A DNA stretch of 64,000 nucleotides from Sedimentisphaerales bacterium (lineage in GTDB: Bacteria; Planctomycetota; Phycisphaerae; Sedimentisphaerales; SM23-30): assembly GCA_963666285.1 (NCBI GenBank), contig OY762711.1, one strand, 5' to 3'. Made by a program: the position numbers and the translations under genes. Below, piece by piece: positions 20,482-27,117 of the stretch (within the stretch, counting starts at the first letter, position 1; the number at the start of each line of letters is the position of its first letter). The notes below the pieces were generated by a model that saw only the letters and a program-made list of their open reading frames with translations, was not told the origin of the DNA and did not search any database.

Positions 20482-23400
20482 TCATTGTAACATAATCGAC
20501 TCTTCATACTCACTAAATTTTATCCCAAAACTCGCCTCACTTCCCTGCTCTCCTATATCTGCTTTACGAACACTTATCGAATACTTACACTTCTCCAGGT
20601 CAATCGTCGCAGATACCTTCTCCCCACTGCTCCCCTTCGGCGACTTATACTTAAACACCTTCTTCTCCCCCTGCCTGACAATATTCTCAGCTTCCAGGGT
20701 CACACTGTAATCACCATAGGTAATAACAATATCCTCCGCCGCAATATCCGCACTCACATCCGCCACAACTATCTGACCCTGCACACTCAAACTGTCAGTC
20801 CCGGCCTTCTTACCAGCCTTAAACTTCACCTTATCAACCGTTAGCACATCTTCAACCCCACTCATCAATTCCACTGGCATACTCTTCTTGCCATTAATCA
20901 CATCAACCCCACCGCCTGAACCTAACACTCCGCGATCATAACCAGTCGCCGAAGCCGTACAACCTGTTCCTGTTTCAATCACAACTGTTACAGGTGCTTC
21001 CAAACCGGTCAGGTTCAGCCCCTTGCCAATATACTGGAAAGTATCTGTAGTTAAATCGAAGCTATATTGCGATGCACCATTCTTAACCCTATACAACTGT
21101 TTCTCATTAGTGCCCAAATATATCGTCTGATTATGCACAACCGTCATATTACTACCGGCATAGATACTGAAATTCACCTGACCTTCAAACAACTCAGCAG
21201 GTATCTTAAACAAAGAACCCTTCAAACTGATACTGTCACCATTATCACCTCGAGACCGACCTGCCTTAACCGTCATCTTATCCAACACAAAACGATAGCT
21301 CAGACCCTGTACTCCCATATTTCCAATCTCAGCTAAAAACGGAGTGCCATCTTCAATATCCCAAACCTGCTCGTATCCATTTTCTGTCTCATCCACAAAA
21401 TCCCAGCCTGCATCAAGAAAAGTTCCAATATTCACCATCTCGACAGAACTCTTTCCGATAGCACCCAGGCTACCATCTCCAGATTCGCCAATACCAGAAC
21501 TGTCAACATCCCAGAAACTCTTCTGTATTCCGCCAATCGGATAAACGGTTACACCTCCTGAACCGGCAGCAGCACCCAAAACAAAATCATCGGTTATTAT
21601 TAAATCTATTAAACCTGCATCCTGTATCGCAGCGGCAAATCCGCCCGTCACTCCCTCTCCACCGGAAACCGTACCGCCCGAATAACAGTATTTAACGTAA
21701 CCTGTATTCAAACCTGCGAAACCGCCCGCACTATAATCGCTGGCAACCAGGCCGGTACAGTAACTGTTTTCTATATCTCCTGTATTACGCCCAACAAATC
21801 CGCCGCTATAGCCATATACACTATCGTATTCATAACCCAGCATACTACTAACTGCCATACCGGTATAACTCCGATCAATTGCCCCATAATTTTCACCAGC
21901 CAATCCGCCTTCAATATGGTTATAGGCATAACAATATATATCTAATCCCCCTGCTGCACTACACGACGATATATAGCCGTAATTCTGTCCGACAAAACCA
22001 CCTGTAATATAATACGGAATCTCGCCCTTAACACTTGGATCAGTATAGCAATACAAAGCTGAAACGCTTCTCCTGTCTGCCATATTATCATACAATATAC
22101 TCCATCAAAATGGCAGTTATTGATTATTCCATTATTTACTACTGCAATACCACCAGTAACACTGGAATAATACGACCTCATTACAAGGTTATCAAATGTA
22201 ATATTCTTTACAACTCCATAATTACTGCCAAAGAACCCACAACAACCGCCTAATTCCATATTTGATATTTTATACCCATCGCCGTCAAATGTACCATAGA
22301 AATCGCCTTGAATATAACTGTCACATACACTGCTAGACGATGTAAGCGAAATATCCACACCTTCCAGATCTATATCATTTGCCAACCTGTAAAACCCGAA
22401 CTGCAAACCACCATTAGCTGCAAACTCTTTCAAGTCTTCAGCATCAGCAATAATAAACGGATCGTCATTGGTACCGCTTCCCGCCAAAACGGTATCAACA
22501 TCCAGCAGATACAGCGGCTCAAAACCGGCATCCGCCTCCCATGCCAGTTTAGGCATACAGCCTTCCTCTATCGCCCATATATCATCCGTACCGTCAGTAT
22601 CATCACCAACAAAATCAAATCCTGCAAAACTGGATTGCTCGGTTAGCTCTGAATCACTTAACGCCACTTCGCTGCCCTCACCTGTTTCTCTCTCATCTGT
22701 TGCACCACTGTATTCATAATAATAACTGTTACTTATAACCGGCATTGCTTGAATAGAATATGCTCCTTCAGGTAATATTGGAAAATAACCAGCAAGACCT
22801 CCCGCATTTTCCAAACCCGTTACCCTGCCTGCCGCATAACTTTTTGTGATATTACCCCCGGAATGACTTCCAACCAGCCCGCCAACATTTTCTAATCCCA
22901 TAACCGAACATACAGAATATGAATTAATTATTCCTTTACTCATATTATTACCACTTGTATATCCTACCAGCCCACCAACATTTTCCTTACCCGAAACAAT
23001 CCCAGAGCTATAACACCCTTCTATCAACCCGGAACTGCTGAAACCTGCTAATGCTCCGCAATATTTGCCGGAACTTTTAACAGACACATCCTCTAAACCC
23101 AGGTTCTTAACAATTCCTTTCAAATCACCAAACAATCCGCAATAAGACCATCCTGTAATAGAAAGATTACTTATTACATGACCTCCCCCATCAAAAACAC
23201 CGCCATAATACGATGAATAAGAGGATGGCAAAGTTAAAGCATTCGGGTCATCATTCGGAGGAAGAACTGAAACCATCATATTTGGGGACCCAATAACAGC
23301 ACGGTCATAAACACCGATTGCTGATAAATCCAGGTCTGTTTCTAAACGCGTATGAGCACTTCTCCAATATTTATGAAAATTACTTACATCTGCAAACTCT

Positions 23401-23564
23401 TTAAAATCCGCCAGATCTTCTATCAAATACGGATCAGATTCCGTCCCGCTGCCCGGCAAAACACCACCTGCGGCATAAACCAATGACTCTACACACAACA
23501 ACAATACAAAGATGTAATTAATAATTTTACTCACTTGCAAACTCCAATTTTTCTTTATTCTCAT
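20482..23564 (-). pseudogene. secreted GLUG-repeat surface protein split by a 1-nt frameshift near 22100 (or a sequencing error)
   Basis: ORFs 21942-23564 and 20482-22095 both carry GLUG-type VGGLVG/GGFVG repeats and GSGT..DP motifs; frames join if GAT GGA GT ATA TTG TAT regains one base. Confidence 0.75.
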
Positions 23565-23788
23565 CTTAATTATTTTTCAGACTTCAGCTTATCTGGTAGG
23601 CCTACAATAGCCGACCAAAACAAAATATCAATTTTCAATACACAATAATACCAATATATTCCGAATGATGCCACATTATTGTCTCCTGTATTTTATTAAA
23701 ACATTAAAACTATAATGTGACAACTTATCACAGGACCAGACACCGTTTCCTTCTCACTTCTCGCCTCTTTCTTCTAACTCTTCTCATC

Positions 23789-23892
23789 CTTCAGGTGCCG
23801 CAATTTTGATTGAACTTTACCTACGCGTCAGCTTTAAAACAAGTCGTGAGCGACAGCGAATTATTCCTGATGTCAACGTACATCAGGACACC
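23789..23892 (+). repeat. ~105-bp direct repeat, copy 1, with TCCTGATGT-N6-ACATCAGGA hairpin
   Basis: Highly similar to 25599-25704, especially from CGCGTCAGCTTTAAAACAAG to ACATCAGGACACC. Confidence 0.9.
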
Positions 23893-24046
23893 TCAATTCT
23901 TCACTATTCACTTTTAGTTCTTCACTTGTCGCACAGCGGCCTCTGCGAGCAACAGTATTTTTTTTCGTGTTCTTTCGTGAATTTTCTATGAAGCCAGAAT
24001 GCAACATTAATTTTCTAATTTTATTCATTTTTGCTATAATTCCTTT

Positions 24047-24136
24047 ATCTTGCAAAGGATAGGGCTCTGCTGAGGAGCAACCCGAGCGTTGCAAGTTGTC
24101 AAGAAGCCGGGGCGGTTTTACACCGCCTCGTTTTTT
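24047..24136 (+). ncRNA. candidate small RNA inside the IS right end, on the strand opposite the recombinase
   Basis: Extended -10 TGcTATAAT (24032-24040), CTTGCAA/TTGCAAG stem and a GC hairpin followed by T6. Confidence 0.4.
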
Positions 24137-24179
24137 GCTTTTTGACCTTATGCGATAAACCTATTTAAAACAATTTTCG

Positions 24180-24380
24180 CGTAGCGAATCATTATTTACC
24201 TGATTGTTTCATCTTTCTATCCGGAGTGTCCGAGGCTGTATTTTACGCCATGGTTCCATTATATATATTGCGATACGGCTTAATTTTCGTGTCAGGTTCA
24301 AAACCCAAATGCACGACCAAGGTTCCGTATCGATTTCAATCGGGCAAAATCATAGGTAATATTTATATTTTACTTATATT
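24180..24380 (-). ncRNA. putative bridge/seek RNA of the IS1111-type element (ends approximate)
   Basis: Stem CGATACGG/CCGTATCG encloses two segments matching the two halves of the reconstructed target, separated by a GGTT-CAA-AACC hairpin. Confidence 0.72.
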
Positions 24381-24384
24381 GGTA

Positions 24385-25431
24385 TCAAACACTTTGCAAT
24401 TCAGGCATCTGCCAACTTGTCCCATCTCGCATCATCGCCCACAATCGTACGAACAACCGTCGGGCTGTAGCTACTATCGCTATTTTTGCACGAGTTTTAC
24501 TTCCCCTCTTTATTCTTTCGTATGTTTCTTTTATCCATGGATTCCAACGCAAACCCAGCCAGCAAACCTCAACAAGTAATGCTCGCAATAACCTATTGCC
24601 ATATTTACTTATCCGCCCATGACGGTCTGTATTACCTGATTGGTACTGACGCGGTGTCATACCAATATAGCTGCCAACTTGTTTGCAATTCTTAAATCTA
24701 TGTGGATCATCAATATAAGCTGCAACTGCCTCTGCCAGACGTGGGCCAACTCCGGGAACAGTCTGTAATAGTTTTACCTTTTCATCAGTACTATTTAACT
24801 CTTCCAGTTTATCTTCAACTACTTGCAAAGCGTCTGTTAATTGTTCCAGTAATATAAGCTCGCTCCATAGATTGCCTTTCCAGAGCTCATCTGGTTTAAC
24901 TTTATCCATTGGCATAGCCATACTTCTTAACTGTTCCAGATTCTGCTTAGACCAGCACTTTCTGCCTGACGGCAACGAATACGCCTGGGCATTTAATAAA
25001 GAACGAATAGTATTTTTTACCTGAGTTATCCGTTCTGTAAGGCTCTGGCGATAATTAATTAAAGATCGTTTCTCTCGAATTTCCTTTTTAGGAACATAGA
25101 CAGTTGATAAATCTCCTAAAGCAGCACGCTTGGCCAGCCAAAATGCATCCTTTTTATCTGTTTTCTTCTTCAATTTTCTGCCAGACCATTCGCCGGTATT
25201 AGTATTTGCCACTTCATATTTTAATTCCAGGGTGTCAAAAAGGTCACAAATCCAGCCTATGATATCACAAGCCTCAAATACAATAAGATCAGCAGGGTGA
25301 GATACTGCCAGGTCATGAAGCTCTTGAGGGTTAGTCTTAAACGACTTATATATAGCCTTACAGCTTTTTACCTCATAAAAACAAACTACACTCTTGAATT
25401 TTCCTAAATCAATTGACATAATAGTCTTCAT
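24385..25431 (-). CDS. IS110-family recombinase/transposase
   Basis: DEDD RuvC-like N-terminus (IDLGK, FEA, KTDKKDA), VPGVGP and C-terminal QSG...GRISKYGN. Confidence 0.95.
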   Translation of the reverse strand: MKTIMSIDLGKFKSVVCFYEVKSCKAIYKSFKTNPQELHDLAVSHPADLIVFEACDIIGWICDLFDTLELKYEVANTNTGEWSGRKLKKKTDKKDAFWLAKRAALGDLSTVYVPKKEIREKRSLINYRQSLTERITQVKNTIRSLLNAQAYSLPSGRKCWSKQNLEQLRSMAMPMDKVKPDELWKGNLWSELILLEQLTDALQVVEDKLEELNSTDEKVKLLQTVPGVGPRLAEAVAAYIDDPHRFKNCKQVGSYIGMTPRQYQSGNTDRHGRISKYGNRLLRALLVEVCWLGLRWNPWIKETYERIKRGSKTRAKIAIVATARRLFVRLWAMMRDGTSWQMPELQSV

Positions 25432-25598
25432 AGCCAGAATACTCCGTATAAAATTGGTTAAATATTTGAGCGTCCCTGTGACAGCTCGTGCTAAAATTAT
25501 TGTGTATTATAACACAAGCCATGCTACAGGAATATTCTGGCTTTCATTGTATTTTCGTGGTTGACATCTTTTTCAGAATTCAGACTTCAAACTTCAGA

Positions 25599-25704
25599 CT
25601 TCAGGTGCAAACAATTTTGATATAATCTTTACTCCCGCGTCAGCTTTAAAACAAGCCGTGAGCCGCAGCGAATTATTCCTGATGTCAACGTACATCAGGA
25701 CACC
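25599..25704 (+). repeat. ~105-bp direct repeat, copy 2
   Basis: Highly similar to 23789-23892. Confidence 0.9.
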
Positions 25705-26877
25705 ATTTTAATTTTTCATTTAGCAAAGTTCGCCACTCCAAACTTTTCAACATCCTTTTTACATTCTTTTTCATCCTTCATCCTTTACCCTTTACACTTT
25801 GATGCCGCTCCGCGGCATCTGGTCTGCCCACAAACCAAAAATAACAACTTACATCAATTCACGAAAAATCCCCTCCCCGCCGCAACTCTTCCCTGAACCC
25901 ACCTCGCACTCATTCATATATCCCCGCACTCTTCAATTTCATTCCGTTTTTTAACATCTCCTTCACCCACTACTCTCACACTCACACTTATAAATCAATT
26001 AGCCTCGCCGCCCCCCTTTAAAACAGGTCGCGTAGCGACACCTTCACATCATTGGACAAGTCCAATGATGTGCCCCAGTGCGCAGCACGAAGTTTATCTG
26101 CTGACAGCTGGCAGCTAGTCGCTCGCCGCTGTTGGCTCTTGATTTTTGATACTTTATCCTTTATACTTTATACTTCAGAAACGCTTTTCATTTCTTTCTT
26201 TATCAGTATGCATCTGCTTATCTGTGGTTCTCTTTTCAGGCGTTAGCCGTTTAAATAAGCTGTCCGCGAAGCGGACACCTCAACTCTTACCTCTTATCTC
26301 TAACTTTTTACCTACCTCCCCGTCTCCGCTTCGTTCCCGTCCGCATACCGCCGCACCCATTCAACGTTCCGCCGTATACTGTCCGCGGCCCGCAATTCAC
26401 CGCCGCTCAAATCCATTTGCCTTTTCACCGCCGTTCACCCGCCGCGCTGCCCCGTATATATGCCGCACACCTCCCGTCACCCATCAATCAGCCGCGAGCG
26501 GTAGCGAGCAACATTCCCTGGCACCTTAAACCTGATCCCTGGCACCTGATTTTCTCGAAAAAATCACCGCGTTTTTACAACCACCAAATCGCGAAAATCT
26601 AAAATCTCCAAAATTTTTATCCTGCTTTCCCACAACCCTTTACAATCTTCCACACCAACCATCCCACCCAAAAAATCAGCGCACTTTCGACATACCGTCC
26701 AATTGTAGAGAGCCGACAAAAAATGATTACCAGCAAAAATCAGCTCTCGCTAAAACTTAACAACGACGAAAACTTCGTCTTTAATATAAACAACGCTCAA
26801 TAAAAACTAAATATTTGAATACAGTCTCGGCAAATCAGAATGATTTGCCCTCTAAAATTGACAATCTCAATTCGTCG

Positions 26878-26939
26878 CCGAGCGAAGCGAGGTATTGTCC
26901 AGACTATGTCTGATCCGAGCGAAGCGAGGTATTGTCCAG
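26878..26939 (+). repeat. two exact 25-bp direct repeats CCGAGCGAAGCGAGGTATTGTCCAG
   Basis: Copies at 26878-26902 and 26915-26939. Confidence 0.9.
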
Positions 26940-26974
26940 GCTTTGCCTGGTGCCCGCTTTACCGCAATGGCTGC

Positions 26975-27013
26975 AAAAAAAAATAACCCAGGCCAATACT
27001 AATCAGCCTGGGC
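26975..27013 (-). terminator. intrinsic terminator downstream of metE
   Basis: CCCAGGC/GCCTGGG stem followed by a T-run on the minus strand. Confidence 0.7.
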
Positions 27014-27117
27014 ATACTATTTTTCAAAATCTAATCTGTTCAGTTTGAACGATCATTTAGATAATACAATTTCTATCCATCTCCGAACCCAACTTGCCTG
27101 GGTACGGTCTAGTCCAA

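Follow-up and report, generated by a model that had tools for sequence, protein, structure and literature searches.

Insertion sequence and recombinase gene

A stretch of 64,000 nucleotides (nt) on contig OY762711.1 of a Sedimentisphaerales bacterium (assembly GCA_963666285.1), referred to here as the window, contains an insertion sequence of 1570 base pairs (bp). The insertion sequence is very probably an autonomous member of the IS1111 family, in which a non-coding RNA transcribed from the 3' non-coding end of the element directs a DEDD recombinase. This reading is based on observed properties: the fold of the non-coding end, the matches of its guide segments to the flanks and ends of the element, the covariation of these matches in relatives, the site and orientation specificity of nine copies, and intact genes. 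The element is composed of the following parts.

23986..25555, minus strand: whole insertion sequence, 1570 bp, from a nine-copy alignment over exactly that span; the ends slide within a shared ATTTTC
25534..25547, unstranded: sub-terminal inverted repeat of the recombinase-upstream end, ATGAAAGCCAGAAT in recombinase sense, read from the sequence and present in relatives too
23988..24000, unstranded: sub-terminal inverted repeat of the recombinase-downstream end, ATGAAGCCAGAAT on the plus strand, read from the sequence and the ends of relatives
24385..25431, minus strand: DEDD recombinase gene (348 amino acids), identified by Pfam, NCBIfam and alignment; sole long open reading frame of the element

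The inverted repeats are 13 nt (23988-24000) and 14 nt (25534-25547) long, the longer one having one extra A. The terminal extensions outside them sum to 10 nt, with an exact split that is ambiguous within the shared core. Non-coding DNA occupies 399 nt downstream of the recombinase gene (23986-24384) and 124 nt upstream of it (25432-25555). A sequence-only reading of the window had described a complete IS1111-type element at 23960-25565. The completeness and the type were borne out by the sub-terminal inverted repeats, the long 3' non-coding end and the IS110-family protein of 348 amino acids, whereas the proposed span took in 26 and 10 nt of flank and the element proper covers 23986-25555.

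Nine full copies of the element (98.98-100% identity) were identified in the genome, all on contig C1, together with one fragment of 35 nt. Four of the copies share 100% identity. The element is collapsed into a single contig of 1581 nt (window 23983-25563) in the Logan contigs of three runs. At a depth of 228.9, as against about 22-32 for single pieces nearby, this contig is consistent with about nine copies.

The recombinase is assigned by its sequence to the IS110 family. It matches PF01548 (DEDD_Tnp_IS110, 1.1e-13) and PF02371 (Transposase_20, 1.5e-26) of Pfam, and NF033542 of NCBIfam ("IS110 family RNA-guided transposase") with 213.5 bits against a cutoff of 140. The residues D8, E53, D92, D95 and S265, the last within GMTPRQYQSG, are invariant in five aligned sequences (the window and four relatives), and the frame is open without stops in all nine copies. 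Solved structures align to the C-terminal domain only (residues 203-339), namely those of the ISCro4 transposase (E 1.7e-15) and the IS621 transposase (3.5e-14).

Two further observations concern variant or foreign forms of the element. Runs X1 and X2 each yielded one contig that joins window position 24307 to 25386 and skips 1078 nt, at depths of 10.3 and 4 compared with 229 and 274 for the element; the joint is absent from the assembled genome and could reflect either an assembly artefact or a rare form with an internal deletion. A 260-nt contig with at least 99% identity to window 24202-24461 (depth 2) was found in run X4, a metagenome from a different study. This contig includes the guide RNA as well as the recombinase gene's 3' end, which indicates that the element or its host occurs elsewhere.

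Target sites and insertion specificity

The two halves of the target were defined from the sequence, the flanks of the copies and the empty sites.

23963..23985, unstranded: window-left half of the target, phased TTTCGTG words ending ...CGTGAATTTT
25556..25563, unstranded: window-right half of the target, CGTGGTTG

Removal of 23986-25555 in silico leaves TTCGTGAATTTTCGTGG. This sequence is present unbroken at five other sites in the genome, four of which have the same upstream TTCGTGTTCT, and the restoration of an intact site that had been proposed from the sequence was thereby confirmed. Three further genome matches have at most 2 mismatches to TTCGTGAATTTTCGTGG, one of them adjoining an occupied site. 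The empty sites hold the core once, and insertion is without target duplication.

Seven copies of the element are flanked as ...TTCGTGTTCTTTCGTGAATTT(T) / element / CGTGGTTG, one as ...TTTTTGTGTATTT / element / CGTGGTTC and one as ...TTTCGTGTTTTT / element / CGTGGTCT. All nine insertions thus lie at T(C/T)GTG-N-(A/T)TTT / CGTGGT, and the orientation relative to the target word is identical in 9/9 copies. Alignment of the flanks of other copies had been suggested as a check on the claim that the element is aimed at a short repeated TTCGTG motif; with 9/9 copies at related words in one orientation, the claim held. The right flanks past CGTGGTTG fall into three unrelated classes, which places the target word at the edge of a repeat module.

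Seven of the nine copies are located in the same kind of repeat module, and two of these lie in tandem, 474 bp apart. Such a distribution favours an alternative explanation in which the element is a fixed relic that is no longer mobile and its copies are segmental duplications of a host repeat module. The contigs without an excision or circle joint point the same way, as a blank rather than as evidence. This explanation is very improbable, because the right flanks beyond 8 nt belong to three unrelated classes, the other two copies are at unrelated loci that have only the guide-specified word in common (one of them inside a spacer of a CRISPR array), and four copies are 100% identical with all frames open. 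The two tandem copies, at C1:714496-718109, have the same orientation and occupy separate copies of the target module.

The window-left junction (window 23982) has 3 T in seven copies, 4 T in two copies and 4 T in the empty sites. The same 1-nt wobble occurs at that junction in a relative with 50% protein identity (G020), which has GAAGG or GAGG. This length wobble in the core is one of the odd features of the element.

The copy in the CRISPR array (C1:3248920-3250490) is outside the window, in a locus at C1:3248295-3250718. It is located inside the 10th spacer of an array of 14 repeats, the repeat of which ends AATTTCTACTGTTGTAGAT. A Cas12a of 1295 amino acids (Pfam RuvC_1, REC1, REC2, NUC and PI) and Cas1 are encoded just upstream of the split array. 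Without the element, the split spacer is 29 nt long, contains three TTTCGTG words and resembles the usual target of the element.

Predicted target-binding stem-loop and guides

The downstream non-coding end contains a stem-loop with two guide segments, read on the strand of the recombinase gene.

24271..24332, minus strand: target-binding stem-loop, from folds and the covariance model; the 8-bp basal stem is followed by a 4-bp extension, an internal loop and a distal hairpin
24307..24317, minus strand: 5' (T) guide, RNA GUCGUGCAUUU, complementary to the recombinase-sense strand at core and right flank (9/11)
24283..24293, minus strand: 3' (B) guide, RNA GACACGAAAAU, with the sequence of the recombinase-sense strand over left flank and core

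The basal stem is formed by 24271-24278 (cgatacgg on the plus strand), which is the reverse complement of 24325-24332 (ccgtatcg). The extension pairs 24318-24321 with 24279-24282, and the distal hairpin (24294-24306) has 4 bp (GGTT/AACC). Plus-strand 24307-24316 (aaatgcacga) reads TCGTGCATTT on the recombinase-sense strand and matches the window-left flank TCGTGAATTT at 9/10 positions. Plus-strand 24282-24291 (aattttcgtg) equals core and window-right flank, so that CACGAAAATT (24291..24282) is the exact reverse complement of AATTTTCGTG. The match of the B guide is 9/11 by model columns and 10/10 in the frame used by the sequence-only reading, whose 8-bp stem, two guide segments and 4-bp hairpin were reproduced in all coordinates and letters. 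The two guide matches overlap by 5 nt in the target (AAATT, recombinase sense).

The layout of stem, loop and hairpin was obtained from both the minimum free energy (MFE) fold and the RNAalifold consensus of 14 relatives. When the 399-nt non-coding end is folded as a whole, its MFE structure retains both basal stem and hairpin (z-score -2.34) and pairs the two guides with each other. In an Rfam search of 23000-26500 at E <= 1, no bridge RNA family was matched; the only match was a sub-threshold snoRNA (small nucleolar RNA) outside the element.

When the non-coding end was dinucleotide-shuffled 2000 times, 38 shuffles gave a sense match of at least 9 nt to the left flank, and 2 gave an ordered, spaced guide pair reaching the observed score. 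The first count and the target core of A/T only favour an explanation in which the protein alone chooses the target and the guide-like matches arise by chance in AT-rich, low-complexity sequence. The second count opposes it, as do relatives with unrelated G+C-rich targets (L023, L070 and L059), which show 9-10/11 matches in the same model columns. A target choice by the protein alone is therefore scarcely credible.

Covariation of guides and flanks in relatives

Protein relatives with 66% (G017), 51% (G038) and 50% identity (G020, 9 copies) were identified, and a match of E <= 1e-30 was present in 6/41 genomes. From 192 relatives in species-representative genomes 80 related loci were kept, mostly from Planctomycetota; among these, the best relative (66% identity) comes from a metagenome-assembled genome of Sedimentisphaerales. 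The suggestion that the element is an uncharacterised member is plausible at this distance. The ends common to the relatives are ATG(A/C/T)A(A/G)GCC... and ...GGC(T/C)T(C)ATAG. A motif-anchored search for the ends replaced a noisy generic inverted-repeat search; in L082, and probably in L057, it put the left end in the wrong place.

A covariance model was built from the RNAalifold consensus of 14 downstream regions that had been picked for showing flank matches. The consensus order is basal stem, extension stem, 11-nt 5' loop strand, 4-bp distal hairpin and 11-12-nt 3' loop strand, and compensatory changes were found in 14/15 consensus pairs. The model gave 39 matches in 83 sources (393,305 bases), all downstream of a recombinase gene and on its strand. 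The sole match in the window (53.2 bits, E 2.9e-12) lies on the minus strand at 24263-24347.

The guide columns were taken from the model alignment of 33 non-redundant RNAs and the flanks were located via the inverted repeats, which left 26 usable right flanks and 19 usable left flanks. The scores of guides against cognate and non-cognate flanks were as follows.

5' guide and right flank (n=26): cognate mean 7.73/11, non-cognate 4.86 (standard deviation 1.17); own flank top or co-top in 20/26; observed value reached in 0/10000 permutations
3' guide and left flank (n=19): cognate 8.47, non-cognate 5.61; own flank top or co-top in 16/19; 0/10000 permutations
3' guide without its near-universal last 3 nt (n=19): cognate 5.63, non-cognate 3.45; own flank top or co-top in 14/19; 0/10000 permutations

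The element of the window scores 9 for the 5' guide and 9 for the 3' guide. In the 11 elements that were not seeds of the model, the mean of the 5' guide is 8.27, as computed from individual scores. L082 has a 3' guide score of only 4 because of its mis-assigned left end; the generic inverted-repeat search showed a proper end with a matching flank. The misplaced left ends of L082 and probably L057 lowered the B scores of these two. Some relatives have targets in common (L125/L064, L058/L059 and L052/L057). A covariance model across homologues had also been proposed as a check, and it recovered the same fold behind 39 recombinase genes, with both guide segments in internal-loop columns that covary with the flanks; the target-binding-loop layout assigned by the sequence-only reading was thereby upheld.

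Since the target repeats directly with a period of 10 bp, the two guides of the window element are mutually complementary (UCGUG/CACGA). Mutual complementarity of 5-6 nt in a fixed register was detected in 6/33 family members (the window, L049, L065, L054, L082 and L114) compared with 2.7% of non-cognate pairs, and 1/10000 permutations reaches the observed value. It implies that these members insert between two units of such a repeat and that their target loop can pair with itself. A wider reading, in which the element represents an IS1111 sub-lineage specialised on phased heptad arrays and having a target loop that zips shut, is doubtful as a whole. The arrays concerned fill the intergenic DNA of the source planctomycete and its phages. 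Under that reading the insertion into the look-alike spacer of the Cas12a array would be a by-product that splits the array, and the target loop could zip shut in the free RNA, a closed state to be opened by the protein or the target.

A second IS110-family element is present in the same genome, with a protein 36% identical to the first and four copies, at C1:1589823-1590821 and three other sites (L045-L048). It has IS1111-like ends and adjoins AACCACGAA words that resemble the target of the first element. Its match to the covariance model is weak (E 0.0048) and its guide matches are not clear.

Second loop and outer stem

The target-binding stem-loop is part of a longer RNA candidate with a second loop, an arrangement absent from the sequence-only reading, which had noted the target-binding layout and had missed the donor-matching loop and the outer stem.

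24202..24341, minus strand: candidate two-loop bridge RNA ("long seek" RNA), about 140 nt, closed by the outer stem
24213..24220, minus strand: donor-matching segment, RNA AUAGAAAG, containing the last 4 nt of the right end (ATAG) and the first 3 nt of the core

No variable column is present in the nine copies over 24102-24344, which spans the whole RNA candidate. Every relative contains the motif (C/T)NG(A/G)-AT(A/G)G followed by 3-4 nt, about 28-55 nt past the first stem-loop. This motif was loosened after a strict pattern had matched nothing. The donor test included 27 non-redundant elements with a known right end, and six elements without a right end were excluded. The 3 nt after the motif equal the first 3 nt after the CAT(A/G)G end in 26/27 elements, compared with 33% of non-cognate pairs, and the observed sum is attained in 0/10000 permutations. 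By core class the elements divide into AAG (14), GAG (7), AGG (3), AAA (1), TCG (1) and TTG (1). The AT(A/G)G part agrees with the element end in 26/27, including two CATGG-ended elements; the exception is L065.

An outer stem of 5-10 bp joins the sequence upstream of the first stem-loop to the sequence past the donor segment. It is formed in the window by GATTG (24341..24337) and CAATC (24206..24202). In an RNAalifold analysis of the long MAFFT alignment, a UGGG/CCCG stem in the second loop was supported and the basal and outer stems were lost owing to register shifts, so the outer stem was tested by direct complementarity. The set comprised 24 of the 27 elements, L092, L097 and L060 being excluded for long insertions or truncation. 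At least 5 bp were found in 24/24 relatives examined, with variants such as GATCG/CGATC and GATGG/CCATC; the mean complementarity is 6.67 for cognate and 5.37 for non-cognate pairs, and 0/5000 permutations reach the observed value.

The 5' strand of the second loop is tentatively considered to pair with the core and left end. In most relatives its central triplet varies with the left extension, AGT going with ACT and AGC with GCT; in the window the match is only 6/8 by eye. Separately, an 8-nt loop match to core and left end (AAAATACA, about 24243-24250) was dropped as a chance match, as it is not conserved in relatives.

The functional RNA could alternatively be the first stem-loop alone (about 24263-24347), reading both the target and the target halves that flank the donor. 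The protein would then recognise the ends via the sub-terminal inverted repeats, and the segment of ATAG plus core and the outer stem would be parts of a precursor or terminator. This proposal is in line with the presence of inverted repeats of 13-14 bp, with a 5' donor guide that is not clear in the window element, and with published work in which movement was reported to be more efficient with an 82-nt seekRNA by itself than with a 154-nt form and donor flanks needed to match the seekRNA (Siddiquee et al., PMC11187229). It is considered unlikely, at a level that still deserves attention. The segment of ATAG plus 3 nt tracks the core in 26/27 relatives and reads ATGG in the two CATGG-ended elements, the outer stem covaries where a spacer would not be expected to be so conserved, and both target and donor loops are predicted in IS1111 members by Durrant et al. 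(PMC11208160). The two-loop RNA is preferred on these grounds.

Promoter-like and terminator-like sites

Three further sites of the non-coding end bear on the expression of the recombinase and the RNA.

24166..24188, minus strand: small hairpin with a U-rich tail just past the bridge RNA, a possible 3' end (terminator-like site 24188..24176)
24108..24140, plus strand: strong inward-facing terminator-like hairpin (24108-24130), 9 pairs (7 G-C) followed by a T run
23999..24004, minus strand: outward -35-like hexamer TTGCAT, 13 nt from the right end

The small hairpin at 24166..24188 is kept in the 66% relative. In a circular form of the element, TTGCAT would be 17 nt from TACAAT (25551..25546), which is at the boundary of core and left end, and this arrangement suggests a junction promoter in the circle. 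Nearly all of 27 relatives have a hexamer of the type TTGAC(A/G/C) at a distance of 13-17 nt from the tip. A junction promoter has been described for these families (PMC11187229), and the TTGCAT/TACAAT arrangement fits that description. From the left end to the start codon, the minus strand showed no promoter-like site. A search of sequencing runs for the locus turned up no RNA run. No circle or precise-excision joint was found in the contigs of 3-4 runs, which cannot show absence; the joints listed there come from host repeats.

Proposed mechanism and its weighing

The proposed cycle follows from these features. The element would excise as a circle, in which the joining of the ends would leave 17 nt between the -35 box of the right end and a -10 box made of core and left end. 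The circle promoter would drive the recombinase gene and then, by read-through, the downstream RNA, which is presumably made in this way and bound by the recombinase. The RNA would fold into two stem-loops closed by the outer stem. The 5' strand of the first loop would pair with one DNA strand at core and right flank, and the 3' strand with the other DNA strand at left flank and core, so that the two strands would jointly select TCGTG-N-ATTTT-CGTG. In the second loop, the segment matching right end and core would hold the donor junction. Strand exchange would take place in the shared A/T core and lead to insertion in one orientation without target duplication.

Several findings weigh against RNA guidance as outlined above. 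The guides are identical in the nine copies, yet two copies are at sites with 2 T-guide mismatches each, which indicates that specificity is not absolute. None of the three target classes, which have A, T and T there, pairs with the T-guide base at 24312 (the C of TCGTGCATTT). The 5' donor guide is weak in the window element (6/8 by eye, in AT-rich sequence), and 3/4 core-proximal T-guide bases of the 66% relative mismatch its own core. Across the family, the own flank is not first for 6/26 T guides and 3/19 B guides, and the 5' guide scores are low in L054 (4/11) and in L095, L114 and L092 (5 each). The 14 model seeds had been selected on flank matches, and the relatives are not independent, so that the permutation counts overstate significance. 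The agreement in guide order with IS1111, described below, assumes that the "top strand" is the recombinase-sense strand, a term that the text seen of PMC11187229 leaves without a definition.

The mismatches tolerated at the two off-consensus sites are C-to-T at word position 2 and A-to-T beside the core, and these two insertions provide a small natural read-out of mismatch tolerance. The element is probably intact and may be programmable, as judged from its sequence. It appears to be a recently active copy of a known RNA-guided kind and leaves the known mechanism unchanged. For Planctomycetota it is a clean natural example, present in multiple copies, of an RNA-guided recombinase. The family data set (the covariance model, about 27-33 guide/target pairs, the donor segment and the outer stem) could help to define the guide rules of IS1111, which is a less studied branch.

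Surroundings of the element

The intergenic region 23565-27117 is a mosaic of sequences present at 12 to about 100 copies in the genome. A 78-nt unit flanks the element on both sides (23815-23892 and 25627-25704, 92% alike). Runs of G-poor heptamers surround the element, and a stretch of about 600 nt (about 26230-26800) is present in about 30 copies. An open reading frame of 540 amino acids (21942-23564, minus strand) with many GLENVGGLVG-like repeats adjoins the repeat region. It overlaps an open reading frame of 537 amino acids (20482-22095), and the two may be one gene split by a frameshift.

Comparison with known systems

IS1111 elements are defined by sub-terminal repeats of 11-13 bp, extensions of 7 + 3 (or 6 + 3) and a downstream non-coding region, according to PMC11187229. 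Their transposases are reported there to have 330-350 amino acids and the motif G(L)-P----S/T-G, and in their guides the complement of the top strand is reported to lie 5' of the match to the bottom strand (Siddiquee et al., PMC11187229). For 93% of IS1111 elements, bridge RNAs with target and donor loops have been predicted in the right end (Durrant et al., PMC11208160). Every IS1111 character tested at the level of sequence was found in the window element, which supports its placement in that group. The protein of 348 amino acids contains the motif as GMTPRQYQSG, and the guide order agrees when "top" is taken as the recombinase-sense strand. The characters of the IS110 group proper (IS621-like) are absent, as the RNA model match is downstream of the gene and the repeats are 13-14 bp instead of 2-3.

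The element resembles ISEc11, ISPa11, ISKpn4 and ISPst6, as described by Siddiquee et al. (2024, PMC11187229), in its DEDD recombinase (330-350 amino acids in that group), its long downstream non-coding region, its two guides that overlap in the target in the same order, and its asymmetric extensions, which sum to 10 nt as under the 7 + 3 rule. Its target is a genomic repeat, as is that of ISPa11, which targets REP (repetitive extragenic palindromic) sequences in the same source. Unlike these named members, which were compared by description only, it has a distant sequence and a planctomycete host, its target is a 10-bp phased direct repeat, and its guides are complementary to each other.

With IS621 and the IS110 group (Durrant et al. 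2024, PMC11208160; structure 8wt6 and others), the element shares the protein superfamily, a two-loop RNA whose internal loops bind target and donor, and a common core. IS621 differs in having its RNA upstream of the gene, inverted repeats of only 2-3 bp and the opposite guide order.

The element also has the RNA scaffold in common with its own clade, which occurs in Planctomycetota and a few other phyla (L049-L128). The clade is characterised by a GAA-type core, a CATAG right end, an ACT/GCT left extension and an outward TTGACA box. The window element differs from it in a core of AAAAT that is not of the (A/G)(A/G)G type, a left extension of ACA, a -35 box of TTGCAT and a nearest relative at 66% identity.

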